This document shows positions 7,990 through 50,782 of a DNA stretch of 64,000 bases, piece after piece. A program made the position numbers and the translations under genes. The notes beneath the pieces were generated by a model, which did no database searches, was not told the DNA's origin, and saw only the letters and a list, made by a program, of their open reading frames with translations. Source of the stretch: a bacterium (GTDB lineage Bacteria; JAJVIF01); contig JAJVIF010000004.1 of the NCBI GenBank assembly GCA_022072165.1, forward strand, positions 79,667-143,666. The letters run 5' to 3'. Every line of letters begins with the position of its first letter. The first letter of the stretch is position 1.

Positions 7990-8300
7990 AAATGCGATCC
8001 CCTAAGTGGCCCCCGGTCGCTGCGCCATTCCCCGATCAAGCCCCCGGTCGCTGCGCGACCACCCCCTAAGCGGCCCCCGATCGCTGCGCGACCACCCCCG
8101 CAAGCGGGGGGGGGGAGGGAAGGTGTGCAAAAGCTCAGAGGGGCGACCGGGGGTCGCCCCTCCGAAAGTCGATGAATCATCTGGTGGGTCGACCTCCAGG
8201 TCGATGGGTGCTGGGACTTCAGTCCCCGACACACCAGCGCATGGACCCGTACGGACCAGACATCACGTCCCAGGTCTAAAGACCTGGTGTCCGGCGCAGC
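7990..8300. repeat. GC-rich palindromic intergenic repeat element, copy A (inverted relative to copy B at 28480..28840)
   Basis: Reverse complement of this segment shares blocks with 28480..28840: GGTCTTTAGACC(Y)GGGACGTGAT, GGGACTGAAGTCC, CCCATCGACCT(R)GAG(R)TCGAC, CCACCAGA, CCTCCCTCCCCCCCGCTTGCGGGGG, GAGGGGCGACC...GGTCGCCC. Confidence 0.7.
8011..8108. repeat. three imperfect tandem copies of a ~32-bp unit (AAGCGGCCCCCGGTCGCTGCGCGACCACCCCCT-like) inside repeat copy A
   Basis: Units at about 8011, 8041 and 8069, each containing the palindrome GGTCGC-TGC-GCGACC. Confidence 0.6.
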
Positions 8301-28439: not shown

Positions 28440-28479
28440 TGTGACGCGATGAAGTGCCCCACACACGGACCCTCTTCCG

Positions 28480-28840
28480 GAGCCCGGGTCTTTAGACCCG
28501 GGACGTGATTCTTGGCCCGCACAGCCCTATGTGTCGAAGCGTTAGGGACTGAAGTCCACCGACCCATCGACCTAGAGATCGACACCCCGGTCGACCATGA
28601 GGTCAACCCACCAGACCAATCGATTTCCTCCCTCCCCCCCCGCTTGCGGGGGGGGGGCGGCGCAGCCGCCGGGGACTTTCTCGGTGGGAGCGCAGCAACC
28701 GGGGGCTTCTGCGCCGCTCGCGCCGCAGTCCATACCGGAGAAAATTCGCATTGCACTCGACTCGGAGGGGCGACCCCCGGTCGCCCGGTGCCCCGACGCC
28801 CGCGTCGGTGGGGGCCGCGACGCCCCGTCGCGGATATGAA
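28480..28840. repeat. GC-rich palindromic intergenic repeat element, copy B
   Basis: Shares sequence blocks with reverse complement of 7990..8300; contains C8-GCTTGC-G10 (28634..28657) and GAGGGGCGACC-CCC-GGTCGCCC hairpin. Confidence 0.7.
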
Positions 28841-29094
28841 GATGTTGGTTGAAGAGCGGAGCGGCGCAGCACGCCACGCCGCTACGTTCTGTTCGTGAAT
28901 TGCCCGGTCGGCACGACTGATCAGCAACTCCCCCCACATAGGCCCCCGTCAACGCACTGATCTGCACCGGCGGTAGTGGCGCGGCGTGCTGCGCCGCTCT
29001 GGCTTCATGTGTTGATTGCTGGCCAAAACAAGACGGCCCCCGGATGGGAGCCGTGCGTCCGTTGCATACAGCGTTGCAGATGTCAGCGACCCTG

Positions 29095-30064: not shown

Positions 30065-32815
30065 ATGCGCTTCGCTGCTCTCCTCGGACTCAGTCCGCTT
30101 CTGCTGCTTGCGGGATGTACCTCGACCGCCGACTCACTTGCGGTGCCTGCTGACGTTCCGCTACCTGGTAACGTCGCCAGTACGGTGGCCGCTGGAGTGT
30201 CGGGACTCTGGGGGCTCTATGACCTCACCATCGATGCGGAGTCGCTGAGCGCGGCCACGATCCTGCTGTCGCCCCGGTCGCTCCAGGCGAATGACGATCT
30301 GTACCTCCTTTCGATCGATGCGTTCCTGCAGCCCGGGTCGTTTCAGATCCGGCAGGTGACGGTCAATGGAGGGGACCTGGTCCTGACCTGGCGTCTGACC
30401 CATCCCTTCCCAGCCCCCCAGGACCCGGCTGGGACACCGAATGGCTCCACGAACCGGGCGGACCTGGGGATCGCCGGGATGCTGGCGTTCCTGCTGGATG
30501 CCCCCGCGACCGGTAACACGTACTTCACCGACGTCATCGCCAACACCGCGCTGGTCGCGAACCCCGATGCCTATGTCCGACCTGCCGCGGTGATCGTGGA
30601 CCCGGGCATGACCGCGAATACTTTTCCGTATCAGGCCTTTGTGGATGAAAGCGGCAACGGCAGCCGGGTCGGCATCTCCAATGGCGGCGATGTCACCGGC
30701 AACTTCGGCAGTGATGGCTGGACCCGGGCGGAGCTCGGTGCGGGCAACGATGGCTGGACCGGCTACGGTGTTCTGCATCAGGGGCAGGCGAGCGAGCGGG
30801 AAGTCCGGGTCCCCCTCGCGGCACTGCAGGCAGCGGGTCCGGTGTCACTCAAAGTCGCGCTGATCGCGAAGTACAACGACCCCCGGGGCGGACTGACTCC
30901 CGCTGAGAAGAAGGCGAATCGCCTCCCCCCCGCGAGTCCAGACGCGAGTCGCTTCGCCTACCGGATGCCGCATGGTGCCCTGGATGTTGCGGCCATCGAA
31001 GCGCTGCCCGAGTCGGGCGGGTTCATCCCCAATACCATCAGCGCGAGCACCCTGCGCTTCCGGGTGGTGGACTGGGATGCCCGGGCGACCGATACGACCT
31101 TCCCGGACCTGAGCGACGATCCGGCCTTTACGACGGTCGCCCCGGGCGAAAGCGGGATCCCGAGTCTGGCTATCTCGATCCCCGGCGTGCTGGGGAGTGC
31201 CGCGGTCGAGGACCTGTGGGATGCCAGCACGCTCACCGACGATGACTCAGCGTATGGTGGCGACAGCACGGCGGACAGTGGCCGTCCGGGTGATGCCCTG
31301 TATTTCGAGAAGGCAGTCACCAAAGCGGCGGGATCGGGGCAGGTAAGCGGCAACTTCACCGGACTGGTGCGGGTGTCCGATCCGGAGCCCACTAATCTCA
31401 TTACGGCGCTCGACCCCGCGTCCCTGCTGCCCCTCACCAGCGGCCAACCGGCGAATGTCACCTATCAGGCGTTCCAGGTCATGATGGCCCCCTCCGCAAC
31501 TCCAGGCTGGGCCGTGCAGCATGGGGGGACCGGGAATGACCTGCTCTATGCGGTCCATGCGACTCCCACGGGGGACTGCTATGTCGGCGGGGCATTCCTG
31601 GGAGCTGTTGACTTTGGGTTCGGCTCAGTCTCTCCCTCCGGGAGCAGCGACGCCTGGCTGCTCAAGCTGGATGCCGAGGGTGCGCCGGTGTGGGTCCGGA
31701 CTTTCGGCGGGACCGCCGGCGACCAGGTGAATCGCATCGCCACTGATCCGGTCACCGGTGATGTCGTGGTGACCGGGCTCTTCAACAACAGTTGCGACTT
31801 CGGTAACGGGACGCCCCTGGCGGCGGTCGGCAGTACCGACATCTACATCGCAAAGTACACCCCCACCAACGCCTTCGTCTGGGCCCGGGCTTATGGGACC
31901 GCCGGGGCAGATTCCGGACGGGGCATCGCGGTGGATGCCGCCGGTGAGGTGGTGGTCAGCGGCTCAGCGGTCGGGACCCTCGACCTCGGCGGAGGACCCG
32001 TGGCGGGGGCCGGACTCGCGGATGGCTGGCTCCTGAAGCTAACCAGCGGCGGGACCCATGTCTGGGACCGCCGCATCATGGGCTCGAGCATCGATTTCGC
32101 CCAGCGCGTGGCGGTCAACAGCAGCAACGAGGTCTATCTCGCCGGCGAAGCGCGTTCGATTGATCTCGGCGCGGGGGTTATCTGTTCTGCCGGTGGCGCG
32201 GATGGCTATGTGCTCAAGTACACCAGCACCGGGACCCTCCTCTGGACGCACTGGTGGGGGAGCAGCACCAATGATCTGGTGGATGACCTGGCGGTCGACA
32301 GTACGGGGGCGGCCTATGTTTGTGGCCCCTTTGGTGGGTCGCTCTCCCTGGGAGGTCCGGTGATCACCAACGCCGGCGGCTTTGATGGCTATCTCGTCAA
32401 AGTCAGCAACAGCGGTGTCTACCAGTGGGATTACACCATCCGGACCAGTGCAGTCACCCAGGATCGCATTCAGGGACTCGCCGTGAGTCCCACGGATCAG
32501 GTCACGATCTGCGGCGTCTTTGGCAACGATGTCGACTTTGGCGGCGGTCCACGGACTCACTCCACCAGTGGCGAGGATGCCTTCGTCGCCCGCCTTGCCT
32601 CCGATGGCACCTGGTTGTGGGATGCCATTTACACCGGGACAGGCAATCAGTCGCTCATCGATGTCGCCTCGGATAACGCGGGGGATGTCCGGAGTGGGGG
32701 GACGTTCCAGAACAGTGTCGATGCCGATCCAGGGGTGGGGGTCCAGACCTTCACGGCGGTCGGCGGGATCGATGCCTGGACCACGAAGCTCAAGGCGGCA
32801 ACCGGCCGCTTCTAG
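30065..32815 (+). CDS. large lipoprotein with beta-propeller-like repeats (SBBP-type)
   Basis: MRFAALLGLSPLLLLAGC lipobox; C-terminal half has repeated motifs DAWLLKLDAEG, DGWLLKLTSGG, DGYVLKYTSTG, DGYLVKVSNSG, DAFVARLASDG. Confidence 0.7.
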   Translation: MRFAALLGLSPLLLLAGCTSTADSLAVPADVPLPGNVASTVAAGVSGLWGLYDLTIDAESLSAATILLSPRSLQANDDLYLLSIDAFLQPGSFQIRQVTVNGGDLVLTWRLTHPFPAPQDPAGTPNGSTNRADLGIAGMLAFLLDAPATGNTYFTDVIANTALVANPDAYVRPAAVIVDPGMTANTFPYQAFVDESGNGSRVGISNGGDVTGNFGSDGWTRAELGAGNDGWTGYGVLHQGQASEREVRVPLAALQAAGPVSLKVALIAKYNDPRGGLTPAEKKANRLPPASPDASRFAYRMPHGALDVAAIEALPESGGFIPNTISASTLRFRVVDWDARATDTTFPDLSDDPAFTTVAPGESGIPSLAISIPGVLGSAAVEDLWDASTLTDDDSAYGGDSTADSGRPGDALYFEKAVTKAAGSGQVSGNFTGLVRVSDPEPTNLITALDPASLLPLTSGQPANVTYQAFQVMMAPSATPGWAVQHGGTGNDLLYAVHATPTGDCYVGGAFLGAVDFGFGSVSPSGSSDAWLLKLDAEGAPVWVRTFGGTAGDQVNRIATDPVTGDVVVTGLFNNSCDFGNGTPLAAVGSTDIYIAKYTPTNAFVWARAYGTAGADSGRGIAVDAAGEVVVSGSAVGTLDLGGGPVAGAGLADGWLLKLTSGGTHVWDRRIMGSSIDFAQRVAVNSSNEVYLAGEARSIDLGAGVICSAGGADGYVLKYTSTGTLLWTHWWGSSTNDLVDDLAVDSTGAAYVCGPFGGSLSLGGPVITNAGGFDGYLVKVSNSGVYQWDYTIRTSAVTQDRIQGLAVSPTDQVTICGVFGNDVDFGGGPRTHSTSGEDAFVARLASDGTWLWDAIYTGTGNQSLIDVASDNAGDVRSGGTFQNSVDADPGVGVQTFTAVGGIDAWTTKLKAATGRF

Positions 32816-33369
32816 CGGGTCGCTGTTTTCTTCGGATCGGCAGGTTCAGCGGGCGCAGGATCGCTGGCCAGCGTCGGCATGGCCCCGACTTCCCGCCGCC
32901 CCAGGGCGTACTCCAGTCGCCGGAAGCCCCGGGTGTGCGCCCATTCGCGACGGGAGAGCGGCTCGATCAGGATGGCGGTCATCCCCCCCCACTTGGCGGC
33001 CAGCAGGTCGGTGAAGAGCTGATCGCCACATAGGGCGACCTGTGTCGCGGGGAGCCCGAGTGTCCGGAGATTCCCCCGCAGGCCGATGTTCAGCGGCTTG
33101 TAGGCCCTGGGGGTCTCGGGGAGCTCCAGCAGCGTGGCCATGCGACGGATCCGGTTTTGCTGGGCATTGGAATAGAGGGCGATCCGGAAGCCGCAATCTT
33201 TCGCGTCCTGCAGCCACTGCCGGGCGGCGGGGGTGAGGTCGTATTGATCGTGATGCGCGAGGGTGTTGTCGAGGTCGAGGAGGAGCCCCCGGAGTCCCTG
33301 CTGCCAGAGGTGGTCCAGGGGCACCGCTTCAAGCGCGTCGCAGTGATAGTGGGGCTGAAAGAGGGTCAT
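32812..33369 (-). CDS. HAD-IIIA family phosphatase (YqeG-like)
   Basis: LRGLLLDLDNTL motif I, C-terminal GDQLFTDLLAAKWGG. Confidence 0.65.
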   Translation of the reverse strand: MTLFQPHYHCDALEAVPLDHLWQQGLRGLLLDLDNTLAHHDQYDLTPAARQWLQDAKDCGFRIALYSNAQQNRIRRMATLLELPETPRAYKPLNIGLRGNLRTLGLPATQVALCGDQLFTDLLAAKWGGMTAILIEPLSRREWAHTRGFRRLEYALGRREVGAMPTLASDPAPAEPADPKKTATR

Positions 33370-33482
33370 CGGTATGGTAAGGGGATGATAGCCGACCCGG
33401 AGATCGCTTCTTTGAAAACAGGCAGAAAGGGACCCCGCCGTTGCTGGTGGGGTCATAGTTGGAAGCACCTTGTGATGGCGGC

Positions 33483-34781
33483 TTAGTAGTTCCAGAAGTC
33501 GGAGTACTCGATGGCTCCAAGAGGGGTGATGAGGTGATTGTGATGCGGCAAGCCTACTCCTGGCATGGCGACGACACCCTCAAAGTCGACTGGCTGTGAC
33601 GAGCCATCATGGATCAGCGTGCCATCGTAGGTCAGATCGTCATAGAATCCGTCGTCGTCTGTGTCTTTCAGCTCCACGATCATCTCAAAGACTGGAGCGT
33701 TCGACTCCCAGGTGTCTGGCTCGGGCTCTACGAACGGATGTCCGTCGGCATAACAACAACCGACGGGTGCGATGGTCCCGGTGTTGGTCCGAATTTTCGC
33801 GTGATAGATCAGCGATGACTTGTGCTCTTCGATCGTGGCTGTCCCAAAGGTGTTGAGATAGAAGGCGTCGGACCACAGGAAGAGATCCGGGGCGGTGGTC
33901 GACGGAATCGCGGCATTGCCAAGCATGGTGGACAATCTGCCGTATTCTCTGAGCCCAAAGGCGACAGTGGTTCCGGCCAAACCGTCTGCGACTCCCTGGC
34001 GATACACCTGCTCTGCCTGAGAGTGAGGGCCCCCTTCCGCATTGAATTCCTGGATCCAGCTTTTTAGAACCTGGCCGATCTGAATCCAGTTTCCGGTATG
34101 GGGCCGGGCGATCAGGAGATCGATGTAGGTCTCTTCAAGTTTCTGCTGCAGGGCCAGATCGTAGTCAGCATACGGAAACACGGACTTATCCAGCCGACCA
34201 GACTCCACGGCGATTCGCAGAAAGTCGCCATAAACCGTGATCAGTGGCAGGATTTGGACACCATAACGCTGTCGCTTCGTGGCTTCTCCAGCGAAGGACC
34301 AGTTGTCGAACTGGGGACCCGCCACCACTGGCTTCTTCCACTTGGCGGTGTGGTCCGCTGCATCGGTGGCGACGAGCTCCAGCATAAGGTTGCCCTCGCC
34401 TAACCGCTTGTCCGCCGTGAAATCGAGGCGAAAGGCGCCAGTCTGATGGTCGAAGTAAGAATTCGGTGCGGCCTGTAACAGGTGATCCAGGTTCAACTCT
34501 ACGGACTGCTGTGTCGAGATGTTCAGCACATGCAGCTTCAGGGCATTCGGGTCGCCAGGCGAGAGCCCCGCCTGAGACTGCACTGATCCCTCGAAGAGGG
34601 TGAAGCCGTGAGGGAGAAACTCCCAGGCGCCTGGAGTGGATGTCATGATGAGTTCGATAGGACCCGTTCCTGCCAGGCGGTCGGGCGTGGGGCTGGTCTG
34701 ATTGGGTTTCCCAGCCTGACAGCCGAAGAGACTCAGGCCAGCCAGGCACAGGAGGAACCAGAGGGATGTCGTGGCCTTCAT
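33483..34781 (-). CDS. lipoprotein, function unknown
   Basis: MKATTSLWFLLCLAGLSLFGC lipobox; start overlaps upstream gene stop in a TAATG arrangement at 34781. Confidence 0.6.
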   Translation of the reverse strand: MKATTSLWFLLCLAGLSLFGCQAGKPNQTSPTPDRLAGTGPIELIMTSTPGAWEFLPHGFTLFEGSVQSQAGLSPGDPNALKLHVLNISTQQSVELNLDHLLQAAPNSYFDHQTGAFRLDFTADKRLGEGNLMLELVATDAADHTAKWKKPVVAGPQFDNWSFAGEATKRQRYGVQILPLITVYGDFLRIAVESGRLDKSVFPYADYDLALQQKLEETYIDLLIARPHTGNWIQIGQVLKSWIQEFNAEGGPHSQAEQVYRQGVADGLAGTTVAFGLREYGRLSTMLGNAAIPSTTAPDLFLWSDAFYLNTFGTATIEEHKSSLIYHAKIRTNTGTIAPVGCCYADGHPFVEPEPDTWESNAPVFEMIVELKDTDDDGFYDDLTYDGTLIHDGSSQPVDFEGVVAMPGVGLPHHNHLITPLGAIEYSDFWNY

Positions 34782-35047
34782 TAACAGATACCTCCTCTCA
34801 GCGCGACCTGTCGAGCCGCTTCCCTACAGAGGTCGTTGACTGCTGTTGCTACGCCGGAGGGGACCTGACCACCACTATTGGTGCGAATCCAGTTCATGGG
34901 ATTTTGCAGGACGGTACCGATGCTGCCAACAACCCCGTTCGCTGCTCCCCCTGGCTGTGAACTGCATCCGGCCCACAGCAATGCGAGGACGAGTACGCTC
35001 ACTACAGGCCAGCTGTCACGGGGCCGCAGCTTGGTATGCTGTTCCAT
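34781..35047 (-). CDS. small lipoprotein
   Basis: MEQHTKLRPRDSWPVVSVLVLALLWAGCSS (lipobox LWAGC), AGAGGGA RBS upstream. Confidence 0.45.
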   Translation of the reverse strand: MEQHTKLRPRDSWPVVSVLVLALLWAGCSSQPGGAANGVVGSIGTVLQNPMNWIRTNSGGQVPSGVATAVNDLCREAARQVALRGGIC

Positions 35048-35086
35048 GTTGTTCCCTCTGTAAAGGGTTAGAGTGAATGCAATCTT

Positions 35087-35106
35087 ACACACACACACAC
35101 ACACAC
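35087..35106. repeat. dinucleotide microsatellite (AC)10
   Basis: ACACACACACACACACACAC sits 40-60 nt upstream of the 35047 start codon, in the divergent intergenic region shared with korA. Confidence 0.9.
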
Positions 35107-35304
35107 GACTGCCTGCGATGAAAATCTCAAAATTTTCTCTGGAGTTCCGCACTGCCCGACTGCCGGACAGTTTTGGGTACTGAAACGCAGAATTCCGCTG
35201 AAACTAGGGTAGAGTGTGTGCTTGTGTCCCGGCACTGGTTCGCCGGGCCAAACTGGGGTGTCCTGACCCTTGGACCACCCCCGAAAGTCAGGTTCCGGAG
35301 CATC

Positions 35305-37143
35305 GTGGCCACTACCATCGAGTCCGCGTCAGCGCAGAGTGCCGGCATCAAGCTAAATGACCTGGTGATTCGCCTCGCCGGGGAAGGGGGCGAAGGCGTC
35401 GTGTCCACCGGCCGGATGCTGGGCGACGCATTTGTCCGTTGCAACCTGAAGATTTTCACGTTCCAGACCTTCCCGGCAGAAATCAAGGGTGGGACGGTGA
35501 TGTACCAGCTGCGGACCAACGCGCAGCCGATCCGTACCCAGGGCGATGTCGCGGACTGCTTCGCGGTTTTCACCCAGGAGGGGTACGACAAGTACGCCGC
35601 GCAGATGCCCTCCGACAGCTATGTCCTGTTCAATGCCGATGAGGTGAAGGGGGTCTCGGACCGCTTCACTGCGACTTATGGGGTCCCGATGACCGCCCTT
35701 GCCCGCGAGGTGGGGGATGTCATCACGAAGACGACCGTGGGTGCCGGTGCCATCGCCGCCATGCTCCACATGGATCTGTCGATCTTCGAGGACCTCCTCC
35801 GCAAGCGTTTCGCCAGCAAAGCGAAAAAGCAGATTGCCGAGGCCCAGGCGAAAGGGACCTGGCAGGAGGGGCAGGAAGCGCCCATCGTCGCGGTCAACCT
35901 TGCCGCGCTCCGGGTCGGCTATGAATTTTTCCGGAAGCTCGAGGCGGAGAGCAACGCCACGACGCCGTTCCGGATTGAGCCAATCGCCGGCGAGCAGAAG
36001 ATGATCGCCACCGGGAATCGCATGATTGCGCTCGGTGCCCTCGCCGCGGGTTGCCGCACCTACGCCGGCTACCCCATCACGCCCGCCACGGACATTATGG
36101 AAGAGCTGGCGAAGTTCATGCCGCAGTTCGGCGGCTCCGTGATGCAGGTGGAGGACGAAATTGCCGCGCTGGGGGTGGTGGTCGGGGCCTCCTACGCTGG
36201 TCAGCGGGCGTTCACCGCGACCTCCGGACCAGGTGTCAGCCTCATGATCGAGATGCTGGGGCTCGCCTCCATGCTGGAGCTCCCCATCGTGATCGTCGAT
36301 GCCATGCGGGCGGGACCCTCTACTGGGATGCCCACCAAGACCGAGCAGGGCGACCTCTACATGGCAGCCTTCGCGGGGCATGGGGATTCCCCGCGCATCG
36401 TGCTCGCGCCCCGCACGGTCACGGACTGCTTCTGGGTGATGGTGGAAGCCTTCAATCTCGCCGAGAAGTACCAGGTGCCGGTGCTGGTGCTGACTGACCA
36501 GTCGCTGGCGGCCCGCAACGAGTCCGTGGATCGTCCCGACCTCTCCCTCATCGAACTGGAGCCCCGGCTGGTGCCCACCACCGAGCAGCTGGAGCACTTC
36601 GCCCGGTACGAGATCACCGAATCCGGCGTCTCGCCCTTCGCGGTCCCCGGCACCCCCGGTGGGATGAACTTCTCTACCGGTGTGGAGCACGATGAGGGGG
36701 GCAACATCAAGCACGACCCGTGGGTGCACCGGGAAATGACCCAGAAGCGGTTCCGCAAGCTGCAGACCGCTATTGCCGCCGGCGATCTGAACAGCATCGA
36801 GCCCTATGGCGACCCGGCAGCGAAGCTGGGGATCCTCGCCTGGGGATCCAACTACGGGATCATTCAGGAAGCGGTCGACCTGGTGGCGGCGAAGGGCGTG
36901 GTGGTGGAGTTCCTCTGCCCGCGCACGCTCTTCCCGGTGGTCCGCCCGGAACTGGAGCCATTCCTCCAGAAGTACGATCAGGTCCTGGTCCCGGAGAACA
37001 ACTTCCAGGGGCAGTATCTGACCATCCTGCGGAACGAGTTCCCCGAGCTGGCCAGCAAGCTCAAGCCAGTGCATAAGTACGAAGGGCTGCCTTTTACCCC
37101 GTCGGAGATTGCCGACGCCATCATGGAAGCGGTGCAAGCATGA
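35305..37143 (+). CDS. korA: 2-oxoacid:ferredoxin oxidoreductase alpha subunit
   Basis: GTG start with GGAG RBS; KLNDLVIRLAGEGGEGVVSTG and GYPITPATDIMEEL are typical of KorA/PorA family. Confidence 0.85.
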   Translation: MATTIESASAQSAGIKLNDLVIRLAGEGGEGVVSTGRMLGDAFVRCNLKIFTFQTFPAEIKGGTVMYQLRTNAQPIRTQGDVADCFAVFTQEGYDKYAAQMPSDSYVLFNADEVKGVSDRFTATYGVPMTALAREVGDVITKTTVGAGAIAAMLHMDLSIFEDLLRKRFASKAKKQIAEAQAKGTWQEGQEAPIVAVNLAALRVGYEFFRKLEAESNATTPFRIEPIAGEQKMIATGNRMIALGALAAGCRTYAGYPITPATDIMEELAKFMPQFGGSVMQVEDEIAALGVVVGASYAGQRAFTATSGPGVSLMIEMLGLASMLELPIVIVDAMRAGPSTGMPTKTEQGDLYMAAFAGHGDSPRIVLAPRTVTDCFWVMVEAFNLAEKYQVPVLVLTDQSLAARNESVDRPDLSLIELEPRLVPTTEQLEHFARYEITESGVSPFAVPGTPGGMNFSTGVEHDEGGNIKHDPWVHREMTQKRFRKLQTAIAAGDLNSIEPYGDPAAKLGILAWGSNYGIIQEAVDLVAAKGVVVEFLCPRTLFPVVRPELEPFLQKYDQVLVPENNFQGQYLTILRNEFPELASKLKPVHKYEGLPFTPSEIADAIMEAVQA

Positions 37144-38015
37144 CAGACGTGATGACGCCAGAAGTCGTGGCCAAGAAGCCGAACGACTACAAGACCAGCA
37201 TGAAGCCGATCTGGTGCCCCGGCTGTGGGGACTTCGGTGTCCTTTCCAGCCTCTATAAGGCCATGGCGGACCTCAACATCGAGCCGCATCAGGTGGCCAC
37301 CGTCTCCGGCATCGGCTGCTCCGGTCGATTCCCCGGCTTCGTCTCCAGCTACGGCCTGCATACGGTGCATGGTCGCGCTCTCACGGTCGCGACCGGCGTG
37401 AAGGTCGGCAATCCCGACCTCCATGTCATTGCACTGGGGGGCGATGGCGATGCCTTCTCGATTGGAGGGAATCACCTGGCCCACGCCGCGCGCCGTAATC
37501 CGGACATCACTTACGTCATCATGGACAACGAAGTCTATGGGCTCACCAAGGGGCAGTATTCCCCCACCACCCATGGTGGCTGGCTCTCCAAGACGGATCC
37601 CTATGGCGAAACCGAAGGAGCGTTGAATCCGGGCGAGCTCCTTATCAGCTATGACACCGCCTGGTATGGACGGGGCTACTCCGGCAAGCCGAAGCAGCTC
37701 ACCGACCTCATGAAGGAAGCGATCCAGTTCCCCGGCTTCGCGGTGGTTCATGTCATCAGCCCCTGCACGACTTTCCGGGGCCTGAACTATCAGCATGAGT
37801 TCGCCACCAAGCTCCGGGATCTGCCCGAAGGGTACGACCCCACCAACAAGCTGGAGGCGTATCGCATGGTGCAGGATCGTGACGAGTGGTACATGGGGTG
37901 CATTTACAAGAACCCCAACAAGCCGACCCAGCAACAGCGCCTGGATCATGTGAAATCGAAGGCCACACAGGTGGAGCAGAGCCTCACCGCGATCTTCGAC
38001 TCGATGACCCATTAG
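37140..38015 (+). CDS. korB: 2-oxoacid:ferredoxin oxidoreductase beta subunit (TPP-binding)
   Basis: IWCPGCGDFGVL and GGDGDAFSIGGNHL TPP motifs; 4-bp overlap with korA. Confidence 0.9.
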   Translation: MTDVMTPEVVAKKPNDYKTSMKPIWCPGCGDFGVLSSLYKAMADLNIEPHQVATVSGIGCSGRFPGFVSSYGLHTVHGRALTVATGVKVGNPDLHVIALGGDGDAFSIGGNHLAHAARRNPDITYVIMDNEVYGLTKGQYSPTTHGGWLSKTDPYGETEGALNPGELLISYDTAWYGRGYSGKPKQLTDLMKEAIQFPGFAVVHVISPCTTFRGLNYQHEFATKLRDLPEGYDPTNKLEAYRMVQDRDEWYMGCIYKNPNKPTQQQRLDHVKSKATQVEQSLTAIFDSMTH

Positions 38016-42976: not shown

Positions 42977-43990
42977 TTACAGGTCGAGGAGTCCTGCAGG
43001 GAGCTTGCGCCAGACACCAGGCTGGTCGGTCTTGTACTGCCAGACCAGCGAGTTTTGCGAATCCAGCAGGGACTCATGGACGATCATTGCAAACCGCTGG
43101 TTCCGAAACTTCTTTCCGGCCGAAGGTTCCCCTCTGGTCAATTGTGCCTGCCGCTTGGGCGCTTCGCCCTTCTCCGATGATGGAGGGGTGGCGTACTCGA
43201 TGATGTAGTTTTCTGAGGTGGCGAACATGACCCACCGGGTATTGTTCACCTCATAGTGAAAGCGCCATTGGCCGGCCTGCGAATGCCAGACTTCCACCGG
43301 TCCGACTTCCTGCTCAATGATCTCCAGTGTCTGGGGGGGAATCCGGAGCCCGAGTTGTTTTTCCAGCCACTGCCCGCCAGGGACTTCGGACGCGGGGGCG
43401 AAAAGCAGTCCCCGGGCGATCCCGTGCAGCAGCTGGAGACCCAGTGGGTCGTGGATACTGAAGCGCAAAATGTGTGGCAGCTCCAGTTCATCCTTGGGGC
43501 GGGGACCCACATTGTGAAACCAGGTACCCTTCGTTTTGCCTTCAAACGGGGCCTCGACATACCAGAGTCCATTGGTGGACTTGTAGCAGCGCCAGCCGTG
43601 GGGTGGCATGACGTCCAGGCGGATGGGCATCAACTCCCCCTGGGCATCGAAGGGTACCAGCGGTAGCGGACTTTCCAGCTCGGGCTGACCGCCCCCGAGC
43701 CAGGCATGAATCACGTCATCCTGGTTACGGGTCGCCGTGCCGATGGCTATCGCAAACGCCTGCAACGAGTTGAAGAGACGTTGCTCCTCAGACTGATTGA
43801 GCCGCTGGGCTATGAACGCCTCCTGCTCTCGTGCTGCTTGCTGGCTTGCGGAGGCGCAACCGCAGCCCAAGATGACACTCAGCATCAGCAGGAGCACCCA
43901 ACCGGAGCCCACGTGGACTGGCAAGTTGCCTGAGCCATACGGCTGCTTCTGCCTATTCACAGCAGCTGCACAGGAAGAGTCTGTGAGCAT
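42977..43990 (-). CDS. lipoprotein, function unknown (downstream partner of Cys-rich protein 1)
   Basis: Hydrophobic segment plus lipobox WVLLLMLSVILGCGC; start uncertain (ATG 43990 or GTG 43913). Confidence 0.5.
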   Translation of the reverse strand: MLTDSSCAAAVNRQKQPYGSGNLPVHVGSGWVLLLMLSVILGCGCASASQQAAREQEAFIAQRLNQSEEQRLFNSLQAFAIAIGTATRNQDDVIHAWLGGGQPELESPLPLVPFDAQGELMPIRLDVMPPHGWRCYKSTNGLWYVEAPFEGKTKGTWFHNVGPRPKDELELPHILRFSIHDPLGLQLLHGIARGLLFAPASEVPGGQWLEKQLGLRIPPQTLEIIEQEVGPVEVWHSQAGQWRFHYEVNNTRWVMFATSENYIIEYATPPSSEKGEAPKRQAQLTRGEPSAGKKFRNQRFAMIVHESLLDSQNSLVWQYKTDQPGVWRKLPAGLLDL

Positions 43991-44495
43991 CTTTATCCTC
44001 CTCGGTGGGTTCAGGCCAGCAATGCAGGTGTTCCTGGCGGGGGCAGCAGGCGTCACAAATCTGATCGTCACCAGTCCAGATGGGCGGACTGGCCTCCTCT
44101 CTCCACGTAAAGCGTGCATCAACCCCTAGTTCCCCACACGGGATGGGTGGGAAGTTCCCAGGGTGCCCAGGATGCTCGTTCTCTATCTCCTCGTAAAGGC
44201 GCTTAAAGTCTTCACAGGTTTCCTGATTCACGCAGGCATACATAGCAGAGTAACCACCGTATTCCGCAGCGCCCCCAGAGATAGCGATGGGTTCTGAGCA
44301 GCTCGGAATCGGAAAGGTGTCACAACAGCAGATGAACTCCGAGAGTTCAAAGTCGAGCGTGGTGTAAAGCGAGATCGCGATCGGGACGCAGCACCCATCT
44401 GGCACGTTTTGCGCCTGGGAAGTCTTCGCGGGGGCTAGCTGTGTCGCGGCCAGCAGTAGCAGCAGCACTGAAAAGTGAAGGGACTTGTGTTTCAT
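43953..44495 (-). CDS. secreted cysteine-rich small protein 1
   Basis: Signal peptide MKHKSLHFSVLLLLLAATQLAPAKTSQA, AAGGA RBS, about 18 Cys including CC and CCC clusters; start overlaps upstream lipoprotein stop (ATGA). Confidence 0.5.
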   Translation of the reverse strand: MKHKSLHFSVLLLLLAATQLAPAKTSQAQNVPDGCCVPIAISLYTTLDFELSEFICCCDTFPIPSCSEPIAISGGAAEYGGYSAMYACVNQETCEDFKRLYEEIENEHPGHPGNFPPIPCGELGVDARFTWREEASPPIWTGDDQICDACCPRQEHLHCWPEPTEEDKDAHRLFLCSCCE

Positions 44496-45508
44496 CGGTT
44501 TTCATTCCTTTCTGGTGCAGACTCCAGACGTGGGACCTCGACATAATCCCACTGATGGGCGGAGAGATCTTCCCAGAGGACCATCTCCTGCAATTGCTGG
44601 GCGATGTGGGCCGACAGGCCTGACTTTCCATAAGGAATGGCAGGACGGTAGTTCAGCAACTTCTTTTTGGGATGAATCTGGAGGTCGTGCCACAAGTCAG
44701 GTATACCTGGACCTGTGAGATGGAGTGCCACTGCGGTGTTATCTGGACGTTTGTACGCCATGATCGAGGGATAGAGAGCCAGCAGGGCTTCCCAGGGCTC
44801 CTGCTGCATTTTGAGATGGAGCGCGTCGAATGCCTGCGACGGCGATTCAGGCATTTGTTTGTAGTACCAATGGTAATGAGTGATGATGCTTGCCAGACTT
44901 CCGGCCCTTCGTGCGCAGAGGTCCTCAGCATCTGGTTCGTGCTCGAAGCCCGGCTTATACTCGCCGGCCAGCGGACGCATAGGCTCATAGCCCTCCCAGC
45001 CGCCGTGAAGGGCCACCCCGAAGTGATCCTCAACCGGGTAGACCGCGATGCTCAACAGGGGCACATCCCCATGTGTCTGAACTACCGGCCAGGGCTCTCC
45101 ACTTTCAAGACAGGGCCAGTAAAGAACCTCAGACGCCAATTCGTTCCAGTTGTTTGGTGCAGTCAACCGGGCCGCTGATGGCACCGCAATTGGGCCAAAG
45201 TAGTAGTTCACCAGGGCCGAATTGACTTCCGCAAAAGTCAGACGTGCCTGGACTTTGGTGATCCCGAGTGGACCATAAGATCTGGCGACCTTCCAGAAGT
45301 CGAAGTAATCGACAGGTTTTTCCTGACGTTTGGTCGCAGTAGAATTCGCAGGCACTTGAGCCAAATCAGTTAGTTTTCCACTATCGCTGACCTGTACCGA
45401 TTTTTCGGCTGAGTTGACCCCGCTGCACCCCATCAGGTACTGGCAGGCCAAGGCAGTCATGAGAGCGACCGTGAGCACGTTCTGACGGGTATTTGTGCGC
45501 TGAGTCAT
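44492..45508 (-). CDS. lipoprotein, function unknown (downstream partner of Cys-rich protein 2)
   Basis: MTQRTNTRQNVLTVALMTALACQYLMGCSG (lipobox); begins 5 nt after the stop of the upstream Cys-rich gene. Confidence 0.55.
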   Translation of the reverse strand: MTQRTNTRQNVLTVALMTALACQYLMGCSGVNSAEKSVQVSDSGKLTDLAQVPANSTATKRQEKPVDYFDFWKVARSYGPLGITKVQARLTFAEVNSALVNYYFGPIAVPSAARLTAPNNWNELASEVLYWPCLESGEPWPVVQTHGDVPLLSIAVYPVEDHFGVALHGGWEGYEPMRPLAGEYKPGFEHEPDAEDLCARRAGSLASIITHYHWYYKQMPESPSQAFDALHLKMQQEPWEALLALYPSIMAYKRPDNTAVALHLTGPGIPDLWHDLQIHPKKKLLNYRPAIPYGKSGLSAHIAQQLQEMVLWEDLSAHQWDYVEVPRLESAPERNENR

Positions 45509-45513
45509 AGGTT

Positions 45514-46029
45514 TCAGCTCGCTTTCTTGTAAGGGCAAGGTGGCAAGTCTGTTTCACACCGCATTCGCGCTTCATGCGGGCAGAAGGGCTCATTGGGACT
45601 TTGTGGAATCGGACAGTCCACAAAAATCTGACCTGGGCATGGAGGTTGGCCTTTTTCTGCCGGCTCTATTAATGCAACAACGTTCCCATAACAGAGTTCC
45701 AGACACCAGCCTTGTCCATCCCTGATGCAGTCAGTGAAGCCTGGTGCAGCTTCAGCGCAATCACCGCAGCGGCACGCTGATCCAAAGGACTCGTTACATT
45801 TCTTGGAGCTTTGGGAAGAGATACCAATCCAGTAGGTCAGCCCGTTGGCGGCACAGTCGCAGGAGTATACTTCTTGGTCATTGCACGGTTCATCGTCTTC
45901 AGTACAAGTCAGGCAGCAATGGCCATAGGCATGAGCCTGACTGACATAACCTGCTTCCGGAGTCGTCCACAAGCTGCCGCACAGGAGCGCCAGGACGATC
46001 ACCATGAGACGTCTGATCTGCATCGTCAT
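45514..46029 (-). CDS. secreted cysteine-rich small protein 2
   Basis: Signal peptide MTMQIRRLMVIVLALLCGSLWTTPEAGYVSQAHA followed by YGHCC...; about 20 Cys. Confidence 0.5.
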   Translation of the reverse strand: MTMQIRRLMVIVLALLCGSLWTTPEAGYVSQAHAYGHCCLTCTEDDEPCNDQEVYSCDCAANGLTYWIGISSQSSKKCNESFGSACRCGDCAEAAPGFTDCIRDGQGWCLELCYGNVVALIEPAEKGQPPCPGQIFVDCPIPQSPNEPFCPHEARMRCETDLPPCPYKKAS

Positions 46030-46071
46030 CCCCCAAGAATGCTGGGGACTGCATACTAATGCACAAGGTTA

Positions 46072-46091
46072 CTCTCTCTCTCTCTCTCTCT
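46072..46091. repeat. dinucleotide microsatellite (CT)10
   Basis: CTCTCTCTCTCTCTCTCTCT sits 43-62 nt upstream of the 46029 start codon, between the M16 peptidase stop and the Cys-rich gene 2 start. Confidence 0.9.
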
Positions 46092-46136
46092 GTCAAGGCG
46101 ATGCCGGAAAATTATTGGCGATGAGCCGACACGCGG

Positions 46137-48866
46137 TTACTCCAGCGAGACGGCGGGGGTGAAGAGGTCGCCGGTCACGGCCAGCCAGGCATTGGCGGGC
46201 TGGAAGTACGTCGTCGCGACCCGGTTCGCCTCCTCCACCGTGACCCCGGCCATCCGCTGGAGGAGCTGCCAGTCGAAGTCCCAGGGGAGATCCCGGGCGA
46301 CATTGAGCGCCATCGCCTGTGATTGCGCCTGCATCCCAGCCAGCGACATCAGGGTTTGCCCCCTGCTGTAGGTGACAGCGGTTGCGAGCTCTTCGGCTGT
46401 GATGCCCTCGGTGGCGATGAGCCGAAACTCCCGCTGCAGGCCGGTGATGGCCTGCTCCCACATTTCAGGCCGTGTCCCAATCCGGGCCGACAGGATGCCG
46501 CCATCACGATACGCCTCCACCCGGGAATAGGTGCCATAGGCCAGCCCTTCCTTGCCCCGCAGCCGGTCAAACAGCCGGGAGAGCCAGCTGCCTCCCAGCA
46601 CCATGTTGACCGCCTGGATCGCCGGGAGGTCCGGGTCATGCAGGGCGACGCCGGGGAGTCCCAGCACACTCATCGTTTGGGCCTTGGCGGTCTGCTGGAC
46701 AATCCGCTGCAGGCCCGTGGCGCTCCGGGGGATAGCGGGAGAGAGCACGGTGCCGGTCTGACGTTTCCGCACCGGTAACCCTCCAAAAATGGTTTCCAGC
46801 TCAGGCTGCACAGTGGCGGGATCGATGTCACCTGTCAGGGTCAGGACTAACGTAGAGGGATCAAAGATGTGCACCGCGTGATCCAGCAGATGCTCCCGGG
46901 TCAGAGCACTGACCGCCGCAGGGCGTCCCAACGGCGGACGGCCGTACGCCACGTCCTGGCCCCACATCGCCAGCGTCAGCTGATCATGTGTGGTGTTGTA
47001 CGACTCATCGGCCCGGGCGGTGATCTCCGCGAGAAGGATGTCGCGGGCGACTGCCACTTCCTCTTCGGGGAAGGTGGCCTGACTGATGAGATCGGCGATC
47101 AACGGCAATGCTGTGGCGAGGTCATCGGCGGCATAGAGTCCGCTCAGCGAGGTGGTGTCGTAGCTGACACTCACTTCGAAGCGTCCGCCGAGGTGGTCGA
47201 TGAGTCCCAGGATGTCATCGGCAGAACGGGTGGTCGTCCCCTTGGTCAGGGTCCGCTCCAGCAGCGCGCCGAGTCCGTTGGTCTCCCAGGACTCCAGATC
47301 GAGTCCCTGCGGCGCGGCGAGAGTGAGCCCCACCGTCCCGGTCCCAAGGACCGGCTTCACCAGCACCCGCATCCCGTTCCGGAGCGTCAGCGTGGTGGGT
47401 GCCGCCCCCGCTCCGGCGGCCTGACTGGCGGGATAGATCGGCTGTGTGGATGTCCCCAGCCGGCCGATGTCGCCAGGTCGCTCCAGGGGAGCGGCTGAGG
47501 GGTCCAGCAATGACCAGTTCGGGGTCAGGGGAGCCGCACCAGTCTCGGCGGTGGCGAGGCCGAGGGTGATGTGCGCGGCGGGGAGGAAATGCTGCGCCGC
47601 CCACTGGACATCCGCAGCGTTGACCCCCGCCAGGCGAGCGGCATAGTCTTCGAAGAAGAGGGGAGACCCGGTGGCGTTGATGTAATAGCCGAGGGTGTAG
47701 GCCTGACTCTGGACATCCTCCCCCAGGAACAAATGCTGGAGCATCAGCTGTCGGCGCGCGCGGTCAAGCTCGCTCGCGGTGGGGCCCTGCTCCTTGAGCT
47801 GCCGAATGACCCTGAAGATTTCCTCGGTAGCAGCGAGGGTCTGCGCGGGGTCCGCCATCTCCGCGCTGAGCCAAAAGGCGGACTGCGTGATCAGTTCTTG
47901 TGTGCTGGTAGAGATGTCGGAGACGAGCCCGAGCTCGTCGCGCAGACGTCGCACCAGCCGACTTGCATCCCCCTGTCCGAGAATCGCGGCCAGCACCTGC
48001 AGAGCATAGGTTTCATCGGCACGGGCGGCGGTTGTGGGCCAGACAGCAGCGATGTGATTGGTGGCGTAGTCCCGGACTCCCACCAGCGACTGCGGCGCAG
48101 TCTGGGAGTAGGGAGTCGTGCCGGGGTCCGGGGCGATTTCAGTCGGCTGCCAGGCACTGAACTCTTCGGTGAGGATCTGCAGCGCATCCTCCGCGTTAAA
48201 GTCACCGACGGCAATGGTGAATGCGTTGTTGGGACCATAAAAGCGACGGTAGTACTCCCGCATCTGCTCATTGGTCTGGGCATCGAGGGTCGGGGCATCG
48301 CCGATGACCGGATGCCGATAGCCAGCGTGGGCCATGGCTGCCGGGAGCACCAGATCGCCCAGGAACCAGCCGGGGTTGTCGAGTCCCTGCCGGAGCTCTT
48401 CCTTCACGACTTCGCGCTCCCGTCCGAACTCGCTGTCCAGGAGCACGGGCTGGCTCACGAGGAGGGCGGTCATATGCGCGATTTCCCGGAGCTTGTCGGC
48501 GGGTCCGACATGGAAGTAGTTGGTGTTGTCCTGATCCGTGGAGGCGTTGTTGTCGATGGCGTTCTGAAACAGGATGCGGTTGAAGTCATCCAGGGGCATC
48601 CCGACTGATCCATCAAAGAGCATGTGCTCGAGGAAATGGGAGATGCCGGCATCGGCTGGTTGCTCGTTGCGGGCCCCGACCCGAAACCAGGTATTCACGA
48701 CCGCCACTGGCGCCGCGTGGTTCTCGACAATGAGCAATTGCATCCCATTGGGAAGGGTCGCCATGAGCATCCCCCCGGGAGTGCGGACCGGTTCGGCAGC
48801 GGGGGCAGGGGTGGCAACGGTGAGGGACATCAGGACTCCGGTGAGCAGCAGCACGAGGGCGCGCAT
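46137..48866 (-). CDS. secreted tandem M16-family zinc peptidase (pitrilysin/insulinase-like)
   Basis: Signal peptide MRALVLLLTGVLMSLTVATPAPAAEP; inverzincin motif HFLEHMLFDGS (HxxEH); about 900 aa consistent with two M16 units; GGAGG RBS. Confidence 0.85.
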   Translation of the reverse strand: MRALVLLLTGVLMSLTVATPAPAAEPVRTPGGMLMATLPNGMQLLIVENHAAPVAVVNTWFRVGARNEQPADAGISHFLEHMLFDGSVGMPLDDFNRILFQNAIDNNASTDQDNTNYFHVGPADKLREIAHMTALLVSQPVLLDSEFGREREVVKEELRQGLDNPGWFLGDLVLPAAMAHAGYRHPVIGDAPTLDAQTNEQMREYYRRFYGPNNAFTIAVGDFNAEDALQILTEEFSAWQPTEIAPDPGTTPYSQTAPQSLVGVRDYATNHIAAVWPTTAARADETYALQVLAAILGQGDASRLVRRLRDELGLVSDISTSTQELITQSAFWLSAEMADPAQTLAATEEIFRVIRQLKEQGPTASELDRARRQLMLQHLFLGEDVQSQAYTLGYYINATGSPLFFEDYAARLAGVNAADVQWAAQHFLPAAHITLGLATAETGAAPLTPNWSLLDPSAAPLERPGDIGRLGTSTQPIYPASQAAGAGAAPTTLTLRNGMRVLVKPVLGTGTVGLTLAAPQGLDLESWETNGLGALLERTLTKGTTTRSADDILGLIDHLGGRFEVSVSYDTTSLSGLYAADDLATALPLIADLISQATFPEEEVAVARDILLAEITARADESYNTTHDQLTLAMWGQDVAYGRPPLGRPAAVSALTREHLLDHAVHIFDPSTLVLTLTGDIDPATVQPELETIFGGLPVRKRQTGTVLSPAIPRSATGLQRIVQQTAKAQTMSVLGLPGVALHDPDLPAIQAVNMVLGGSWLSRLFDRLRGKEGLAYGTYSRVEAYRDGGILSARIGTRPEMWEQAITGLQREFRLIATEGITAEELATAVTYSRGQTLMSLAGMQAQSQAMALNVARDLPWDFDWQLLQRMAGVTVEEANRVATTYFQPANAWLAVTGDLFTPAVSLE

Positions 48867-50165: not shown

Positions 50166-50543
50166 CTAACAGCACTCTGCGGACTCCTCCTCACCACAGA
50201 CGAAAGGCTCTCCAATCGGGTACGACGGATAGCCGGGTGGGAAGCAAGTGCAGCTTCCTGCGCAGGTATAAGAAGTGTAGGTCTTGTACTCTCGCCAGTG
50301 TTGACCTGTGCATGGGATGCAGTTTAGGCAAGCACAATTTGCGGGAGGGCAGCTCAGGAATGCAGCTTTCTGAATATTGTAAAAGTGTGTACAAGGTGAG
50401 AAGCCCGACCCGTTCCAGCACCAGCAAACCTCAAAGCCGGTGCCCCCAAGAGAGATCTCCATCTCGCAGCAGTCTGCAAAAGTAACTGATGGGAGCAAAA
50501 GCACGCTCCAGCCTAGTACAGCAGAAAGGAAAAACCTTAACAC
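50166..50543 (-). CDS. secreted cysteine-rich small protein 3
   Basis: GTG start at 50543 with GGAGGA RBS (track ORF extends to a TTG at 50585); signal peptide ending VTFA then DCC...; ends ...EEESAECC. Confidence 0.5.
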   Translation of the reverse strand: MLRFFLSAVLGWSVLLLPSVTFADCCEMEISLGGTGFEVCWCWNGSGFSPCTHFYNIQKAAFLSCPPANCACLNCIPCTGQHWREYKTYTSYTCAGSCTCFPPGYPSYPIGEPFVCGEEESAECC

Positions 50544-50782
50544 GGGTTTCCTCCAGGCTGGGATTTGGGTGATCGGACGCGACAAAATCTACCCTGCTTC
50601 CTCATTGCAGTCAATGAGCTTTTCTAAAAAATGCGTCCATACTGAACGAGTTGCTGCAGCAATGCCGCCAGCGCTGCATCGCTGGTAGTATCAATCGGCA
50701 AACGGCGGTGGGTCTGAAGAGCAGTTTCCCGCATCGGGCAGTATCAGCTAAAGAGGGGAGCGAAGGCCGGTACAATCAGCAG

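Follow-up and report, generated by a model that had tools for sequence, protein, structure and literature searches.

We analyzed a 64,000-nucleotide stretch of bacterial DNA with a base composition of 63.6% G+C, hereafter called the window, in which a perfect and uninterrupted (AC)10 tract of 20 nt lies between two divergently transcribed operons. On the minus strand, from which the adjoining lipoprotein operon is read, the tract is (GT)10. The first-pass annotation had placed the tract 40–60 nt upstream of an operon of a small lipoprotein and a lipoprotein coupled by TAATG, and the coordinates confirm this arrangement, with the tract at 40–59 nt: the ATG of the 88-aa ORF is 39 nt from the tract, and the TAATG overlap at 34779–34783 joins the stop of the 88-aa gene to the start of the 432-aa gene. 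The same annotation had located the tract in the divergent region shared with korA. This also holds, as the korA GTG start is at 35305 and the product matched TIGR03710 with 600.8 bits; the shared intergenic region is 257 nt long, and the tract is 198 nt from the korA start. The features of the locus and of a second repeat in the window are summarized in Table 1.

Table 1. Features at the (AC)10 tract and at the sister tract (window coordinates)
Feature	Position	Strand	Description
Predicted lipoprotein, 432 aa	33483..34781	-	SLFGC; coupled by TAATG
Small predicted lipoprotein, 88 aa	34781..35047	-	N-terminal signal with LLWAGC
Shine-Dalgarno AGAGGGA	35053..35059	-	5 nt before the ATG at 35047; GGAGG conserved in 4/4 lineages
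-10-like hexamer TAAGAT	35082..35087	-	Consensus reading; T-A-x-G-A-T-T invariant in the four-lineage alignment
Dinucleotide tract	35087..35106	-	(AC)10 on the plus strand, (GT)10 on the operon strand; conserved in relatives
5' flank CATCGCAGGCAGTC	35107..35120	-	Contains the conserved T.GCA
A/T-rich UP-element-like block	35121..35145	-	72% A+T; about -46 to -70 from the putative start
-10-like TAGAGT, putatively of korA	35210..35215	+	Conserved in the four-lineage alignment; ~105 nt from the tract
Invariant 32-nt block TGCTTGTGTCCCGGCACTGGTTCGCCGGGCCA	35219..35250	+	Hairpin CCCGGC/GCCGGG, just 3' of TAGAGT
korA	35305-37143	+	612 aa; GTG start at 35305 according to the gene callers of public assemblies
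korB	37140-38015	+	With korA, 2-oxoacid:acceptor oxidoreductase (35305..38015)
Sister promoter-like element: TTGACA 46091-46096, (AG)10 46072-46091, TAACCT 46066-46071	46066..46096	-	-35 with 6/6 matches and TAnnnT -10, by consensus

Rarity of the tract

The only other dinucleotide run of more than five copies in the 64 kb was (CT)10 at 46072–46091, and the next-longest runs after these two n = 10 tracts had five copies. When the window was simulated 200 times with a first-order Markov model, the longest dinucleotide run had 4–7 copies, and the expected count of (AC)10 on both strands was ~3e-8; these values exclude (AC)10 as a chance event. The same tract was found in independent Logan assemblies of seven sequencing runs (SRR10609164, SRR14117728, SRR28263012, SRR27760790, SRR35657375, SRR23375770, and SRR23908894), and it is therefore no assembly artefact. 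When the bases flanking the tract were included, the alternating purine-pyrimidine run was 22–26 bp long across the lineages. No stable RNA structure involved the tract in any lineage (fold z-scores of 0.04 to 1.6 against shuffled controls), and an Rfam search of the tract region gave no match.

The lipoprotein operon and its products

Neither the two lipoproteins nor the proteins of the operon at the second repeat matched Pfam or NCBIfam. The lipobox-like N-termini (LLWAGC and SLFGC) were read by eye from the translations, without a signal-peptide predictor. In its orthologues the small protein has 142 aa and contains a six-Cys insert, and the 88-aa form of the window lacks 54 residues in frame. 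The window lineage, alone among the lineages, has lost the six-Cys core through a 54-aa in-frame deletion, and the echo of the Cys-rich cassettes that the first-pass annotation had seen in this operon is borne out by the orthologues. Short direct repeats flank the junction of the deletion, CCCATGA|ACTGG, at window 34889–34900 on the minus strand (compared with 1116–1544 of contig L020 and 361–789 of contig L017).

An AlphaFold model of the 432-aa protein from a 16-sequence alignment (pLDDT 87.7, pTM 0.82) predicted an N-terminal Ig-like beta-sandwich, a helical bundle, and a C-terminal beta domain. PDB fold searches with this model gave matches to the Ig-like part and otherwise none that was informative. 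The family is small, with ~29 clusters in a set of 1.8 billion representatives when clustered at 50% identity, and only three close clusters (90, 75, and 59% identity) were found among 5.8 billion proteins. The window's own 432-aa and 914-aa proteins had no exact match on record.

The genes 3' of the two tracts (33483–35047 and 44492–46023) had a third-position G+C of 0.54–0.70 versus the 0.75–0.83 typical of the window, and their homologues among the 5.8 billion proteins formed three and two clusters, respectively. A distant paralogous module occupies 294–2093 of contig L026 (SRR30202055); its two products are a Cys-containing lipoprotein of 182 aa and a 415-aa protein with 26% identity to the 432-aa protein. 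In this module TACGAT lies 7 nt before the called ATG and the upstream repeat is absent, which suggests that the repeat was acquired in the korA-linked branch.

The korA side of the divergent region

KorA gave a full-length match to TIGR03710 above the curated cut-off of 482.75 bits and contains POR, POR_N, and PFOR_II domains; an identical protein is named KorA by NCBI. The 32-nt block downstream of the putative korA -10 was 100% identical in 4/4 lineages, though the four-fold degenerate sites of korA were only 49% identical, and this block may be a leader or operator element of korAB. An Rfam search of 35219–35250 gave no match. Scans of genome contigs with KorA alone and then with a three-sequence KorA alignment yielded no confirmed relative, and nothing was found when metagenome contigs were scanned with the alignment of the lipoproteins or with an invariant 24-mer from the korA leader. 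The window is part of a 270,950-bp contig of an NCBI MAG with locus tags GEEBNDBF_025xx. Homologues of TamB and MlaD are present, which indicates that the host is presumably a diderm.

Comparison with diverged relatives

A perfect GT tract occupied the same position in all three diverged relatives, in which the arrangement of korA and the lipoprotein operon was retained. The tract had 10 copies in the window (lipoprotein identity 100%), 12 in L020 / L021 (90%), 11 in L017 (75%), and 11 in L018 (59%); that is, the copy number differed by whole units across the lineages with the flanks in register. In the comparison of the window with L018, the identity at four-fold degenerate sites was 49% for korA, 48% for korB, and 30% for the lipoprotein gene, and these values are at or near saturation for 80% GC3. 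Four-fold sites were saturated in the two most distant relatives, L017 and L018, and the intergenic flanks of the tract were 55–61% identical. The tract is always pure despite the saturated four-fold sites, which argues that selection probably maintains the repeat itself. Selection on spacer length alone would have let substitutions accumulate and the purity would have been lost. The length differences were whole units only, which points to slippage as the operating mutation.

The possibility that the tract is a neutral microsatellite from a chance expansion, and that its resemblance to a promoter switch is a coincidence, is very unlikely in the light of these values. A perfect run of 20–24 nt is unexpected when four-fold sites are 30–49% and flanks 55–61% identical; at a per-site identity of ~60%, the chance is ~0.6^20, or about 4e-5 per lineage pair. 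Neutrality would also fail to account for a second tract of equal length, at the same relative position of a second secreted-protein operon and flush with a 6/6 TTGACA (see below), although the lack of within-lineage variation and the weak consensus matches behind the promoter assignments are in keeping with it.

Copy number within lineages

Contigs of the same lineage were gathered by exact-protein look-ups. The tract had exactly 10 copies in 8/8 same-lineage assemblies, whose contigs were locally 99.7–100% identical to the window, and 12 copies in 2/2 contigs of the L020 type; these are consensus contigs, which cannot reveal minority length alleles. The same-lineage set comprised at least three haplotypes with SNP differences of 0.1–0.3%, and one haplotype carried a G/T SNP at 35067, 20 nt from the tract. 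Copy-number variation among close relatives at the (AC)10 site was therefore not seen at the level of the consensus contigs. With n = 10 throughout, either the slippage rate is low or this length has a strong advantage in those habitats.

Two contigs of this set had unusual ends or joints. Contig L001 (SRR14117728) is a mosaic relative to window 31781–35246, with no mismatches at ~33800–35246 and ~9% divergence at 31781–33800. Its breakpoint lies inside the 432-aa lipoprotein gene and reflects recombination between ~91% identical lineages or a chimeric contig. Contig L005/L015 (SRR35657375) begins at window 35076, 11 nt before the tract, and its first 31-mer consists of the flank plus the whole (AC)10. 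Length heterogeneity might produce such a start through a de Bruijn bubble, but we rejected this idea, as neither a 9/10 nor a 10/11 mixture would give the observed offset.

The sister tract at 46072

On the minus strand, 46066–46096 reads TTGAC(AG)10TAACCT, so that the spacer between the two hexamers consists entirely of repeat. TAACCT is followed by 42 nt containing GGGGGA and then by the ATG of a 169-aa Cys-rich secreted protein, and the order of the operon is the 169-aa Cys-rich protein, a 338-aa lipoprotein, and a 180-aa Cys-rich protein. The spacer is 2n - 1 nt long and would reach the canonical 17 nt at n = 9. Across sources the -10 hexamer was TA(A/T)CCT. The copy number at this site was 10 in the window, 9 in L023 (99.9% identical to the window over 1.65 kb), 10 in L024 (98.9%), and 11 in L022 (85%), and a one-unit difference (9 versus 10) therefore exists between nearly identical backgrounds. 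The sister tract is 11 kb from (AC)10, lies 3' of a co-directional gene, and has no divergent partner.

The first-pass annotation had drawn a parallel between the two sites. This stands for geometry and architecture; paralogy of the two repeat-bearing cassettes was ruled out by BLASTP, and what the sites have in common is architecture and not descent. The length polymorphism that the annotation had suggested looking for was found at the sister site (9, 10, 10, and 11 copies) and, at the (AC)10 site, among the four lineages (10, 12, 11, and 11) but not among the 8/8 samples of the window's own lineage.

Several further features were observed at the sister site and elsewhere in the window. Contig L023 (SRR23375769) spans 1–1774 and its last 30 nt equal its first 30 nt, which gives a cyclic path of 1744 bp. 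It joins window 44433 to 46185 through a 7–8-nt microhomology (CTGGCCG), covers the putative promoter, the genes of the 169-aa and 338-aa proteins, and the first part of the 180-aa gene, and carries (AG)9; it looks like a tandem duplication or a circular form of this cassette. The gene of the 180-aa Cys-rich secreted protein (MKHKSLHFSVLLLLLAATQLA...; window 43955–44495, minus strand), the third of the operon, was masked in the ORF list by a longer spurious ORF (42977–44122). The intergenic regions 7997–8260 and 28440–28860 have in common a mosaic of palindromic, GC-rich units (GCCCCCGGTCGCTGCGC..., CCCCCGCAAGCGGGGGGGGGG, GGGCGACCGGGGGTCGCCCC, and GGACTTCAGTCCC) that look like REP-like elements. 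The G10 runs in these two regions are arms of hairpins and no free homopolymer switches.

Promoter-like elements around the tract

We inferred the promoter elements from consensus and a phylogenetic footprint; the slippage rate and the effect on expression are likewise inferred. The first T of the -10-like TAAGAT is the last base of the tract, and AAGATT directly follows (GT)10. The heptamer T-A-x-G-A-T-T just 3' of the tract was invariant in 4/4 lineages, with TACGAT in L017 and L018 versus TAAGAT in the window, and the leader otherwise varied up to the Shine-Dalgarno sequence. The distance from TAAGAT to the lipoprotein ATG is 34 nt with the Shine-Dalgarno sequence within it, and the spacing of the hexamer to both is normal for a -10.

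On the 5' side, a -35-like hexamer (ATCGCA, TTGGCA, or ATGGCA) around the conserved T.GCA ends 7 nt before the tract, and the junction with the tract is TCG in the window and TTG in the other three lineages. The TTT blocks and T-runs upstream of the tract were conserved in the four-lineage alignment, and only 0.05% of the 25-nt windows in the 64 kb were as A+T-rich as the UP-element-like block at 35121–35145.

A consensus promoter scan called no promoter at the (AC)10 site. The best -35/-10 pairs flanking the tract in the window lineage had a consensus score of 5/12, and by this scoring a good -35 flanking the tract was not found there, being weak or absent. Moreover, sigma-70 consensus matches were not enriched in this genome region (5 found versus 3.0 +/- 1.7 expected). 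At 19 nt plus flank, the tract exceeds the 17 nt of a simple spacer between hexamers on either side; if TAMGAT is the -10, the tract would span -13 to about -32, so that no -35 would lie outside the tract at 17 nt. The best -35 candidate by consensus reading is the TTG at the 5' junction of the tract, for which the consensus-score model gives a spacer of 2n - 5 nt. The reading is then TTGTGT-17-TACGAT in L017 and L018, which has the best spacer, TTGTGT-19-TAAGAT in L020, and TCGTGT-15-TAAGAT in the window. If the junction TTG serves as the -35, the window allele is predicted to be the weakest and possibly OFF or decaying, and the 54-aa deletion found only in the window's small lipoprotein is consistent with such an allele.

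An alternative promoter was seen in L017 and L018 (TTTTCC or TTTTCA, 17 nt, TATTGT), the start of which would fall inside the tract; its -10, TATTGT, is missing from the window and L020 lineages. Sigma-54, ECF, and extended -10 elements were considered by eye for the flanks and rejected, because the GG/GC spacing was wrong, GGAAC was unconserved, and the TG was one base out of register, respectively. A clean TTGACT-17-TAGATT without a repeat was present at 50586–50614 on the minus strand, upstream of a third Cys-rich secreted-protein gene (50166–50585), which indicates that sigma-70-type consensus promoters do exist in this organism.

Proposed mechanism and alternatives

We tentatively favour, at somewhat less than an even chance, the reading that (GT)n is a slipped-strand promoter repeat, that is, a contingency or rheostat locus of the lipoprotein operon. 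The repeat would form part of the core promoter of the 88-aa/432-aa operon, at about -13 to -32 and directly 5' of TAAGAT/TACGAT. Slipped-strand mispairing would add or remove GT units, and each 2-bp step would shift both the distance and the helical phase of the -10 relative to the upstream elements, namely the junction TTG, the -35-like T.GCA hexamer, and the A/T-rich UP-like block. The transcription of two putative surface proteins would thereby be switched or graded in a heritable and reversible manner.

(GT)n and (AG)n share only their equal length and their slipperiness. This makes mutability a better candidate for their role than Z-DNA or a specific sequence, and no one protein would recognize the two repeats. 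Both operons encode orphan, fast-evolving proteins with a predicted signal peptide or lipobox and have a lower GC3. Contingency loci usually carry orphan, fast-evolving proteins of this kind, with a signal peptide or lipobox.

The main weakness of the switch reading is the n = 10 of all eight same-lineage consensus contigs, as a mutable, unselected tract should differ among them. The L026 module without a repeat, the absence of a good -35 in the window, and the unenriched sigma-70 matches also count against it. Furthermore, two hexamers that stay the same cannot be served optimally by n = 10, 11, and 12 alike.

The tract could instead be a fixed structural element that senses or absorbs the negative supercoiling arising between the divergent korA and lipoprotein promoters and thereby couples them, by Z-DNA formation or by the high flexibility of CA/TG steps; we consider this unlikely, though with an appreciable chance. 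(CA/GT)n tracts form Z-DNA under transcription-induced supercoiling, and the present tract resembles them in being an alternating purine-pyrimidine run between divergent transcription units. A constant copy number within lineages (8/8 and 2/2), a narrow range of 20–24 bp across deep divergence, and the conserved purity would all be expected if the sequence itself mattered. Against this stand the whole-unit length drift between lineages and the shortness of the tract for a B-Z transition, (GT)10–12 being near the lower limit at physiological superhelicity. In addition, the analogous element of the same genome, with equal length and geometry, is (AG)n and is not located between divergent genes. 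(GT)n can form Z-DNA, whereas (AG)n is a homopurine-homopyrimidine sequence that is capable of forming H-DNA and cannot form Z-DNA.

An obligatory role without a stochastic switch is also conceivable, in which a pure repeat of 20–24 bp, maintained by selection, serves as a structural promoter module of orphan Cys-rich/lipoprotein operons. Its length would be constant within a lineage and would be retuned by slippage on evolutionary time-scales, with the junction bases (TTG versus TCG) co-evolving. We regard this alternative as unlikely and leave it a small chance.

That the tract, or T.GCA...TAMGATT, is the site of a sequence-specific regulator, or that the tract is transcribed as a (GU)n element of the 5' UTR, is improbable. 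Length changes of 2–4 bp would not be tolerable for a binding site, nor would such a site be expected to give way to (AG)n in the sister element; for the UTR version, the RNA structure did not exceed that of shuffled controls in any lineage. The bases conserved at both ends of the tract agree with a regulator site, and the alternative promoter of L017 and L018 would start transcripts inside the tract, but the window and L020 lineages lack the corresponding -10.

Finally, a role of the tract in the regulation of korAB, instead of or besides the lipoprotein operon and as in the bidirectional hifA/hifB system, is highly improbable: the tract does sit in the shared divergent region and is kept wherever korA adjoins the operon, but TAGAGT (35210–35215) and the leader block are ~105–145 nt away and far outside a core-promoter spacer, a stochastic switch is implausible for an enzyme of central metabolism, and the sister tract has no divergent partner.

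Comparison with known systems

Under the slipped-strand reading, two different dinucleotide repeats of equal length occupy putative core-promoter positions of two operons of orphan, predicted secreted proteins. If they do function as switches or dials, contingency loci are also present in uncultivated lineages, and the orphan lipoproteins would be candidate surface structures under fluctuating selection, for example by phage, predators, or hosts. If the promoter-module reading is true instead, bacterial promoters outside host-adapted pathogens would here employ microsatellites in a way that has not been described before.

The closest known system is the hifA/hifB fimbrial promoter of Haemophilus influenzae, which contains (TA)9–11 (van Ham et al. 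1993, summarized in PMC3899988 and PMC2651432). Like (GT)n, it combines a dinucleotide repeat of ~10 units and a divergent intergenic region with a core promoter and surface cargo (both putative in the present case). The gain or loss of units in hifA/hifB alters the spacing between -35 and -10, as we propose for (GT)n. However, the promoters of hifA and hifB diverge and overlap, with the tract as the spacer of each, and both genes switch, whereas the putative korA promoter is ~100 nt away from the present tract. The repeat unit is TA in hifA/hifB and GT here, where a -35 of the window lineage is not identifiable, and the host of hifA/hifB is a low-GC, host-adapted pathogen, whereas the present host is an uncultured MAG of 64% G+C.

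Homopolymer spacer switches have been described for Neisseria meningitidis porA (poly-G), Bordetella pertussis fim (poly-C), and Mycoplasma hyorhinis vlp (poly-A) (PMC3899988). These repeats separate the -35 from the -10 of genes for outer-membrane proteins or lipoproteins, and repeat length sets graded or on/off transcription. The order TTGACA, tract, TAnnnT at the (AG)n sister site is exactly this layout. The homopolymers change in 1-bp steps, whereas the present tracts change in 2-bp steps, so that only every other spacer length can be reached.

The T-tract of Helicobacter pylori sabA acts as a rheostat, in which the promoter-proximal length tunes expression through the phasing of promoter elements (PMC4081817). 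Tuning of this type fits the lineage lengths of 10, 11, and 12, not all of which would be 'ON' for one pair of hexamers. The sabA tract, which has been tested experimentally, adjoins the -35 and works by way of UP-like or alpha-subunit contacts.

Long repeats with units of 1–4 nt that act as expression switches are reported mainly from small, low-GC genomes of host-adapted pathogens (PMC4692102, on Mrazek et al. 2007; PMC2651432). The (GT)n tract is most likely another promoter-repeat contingency or rheostat locus of the class known from these pathogens, a provisional assignment that we place just short of an even chance.
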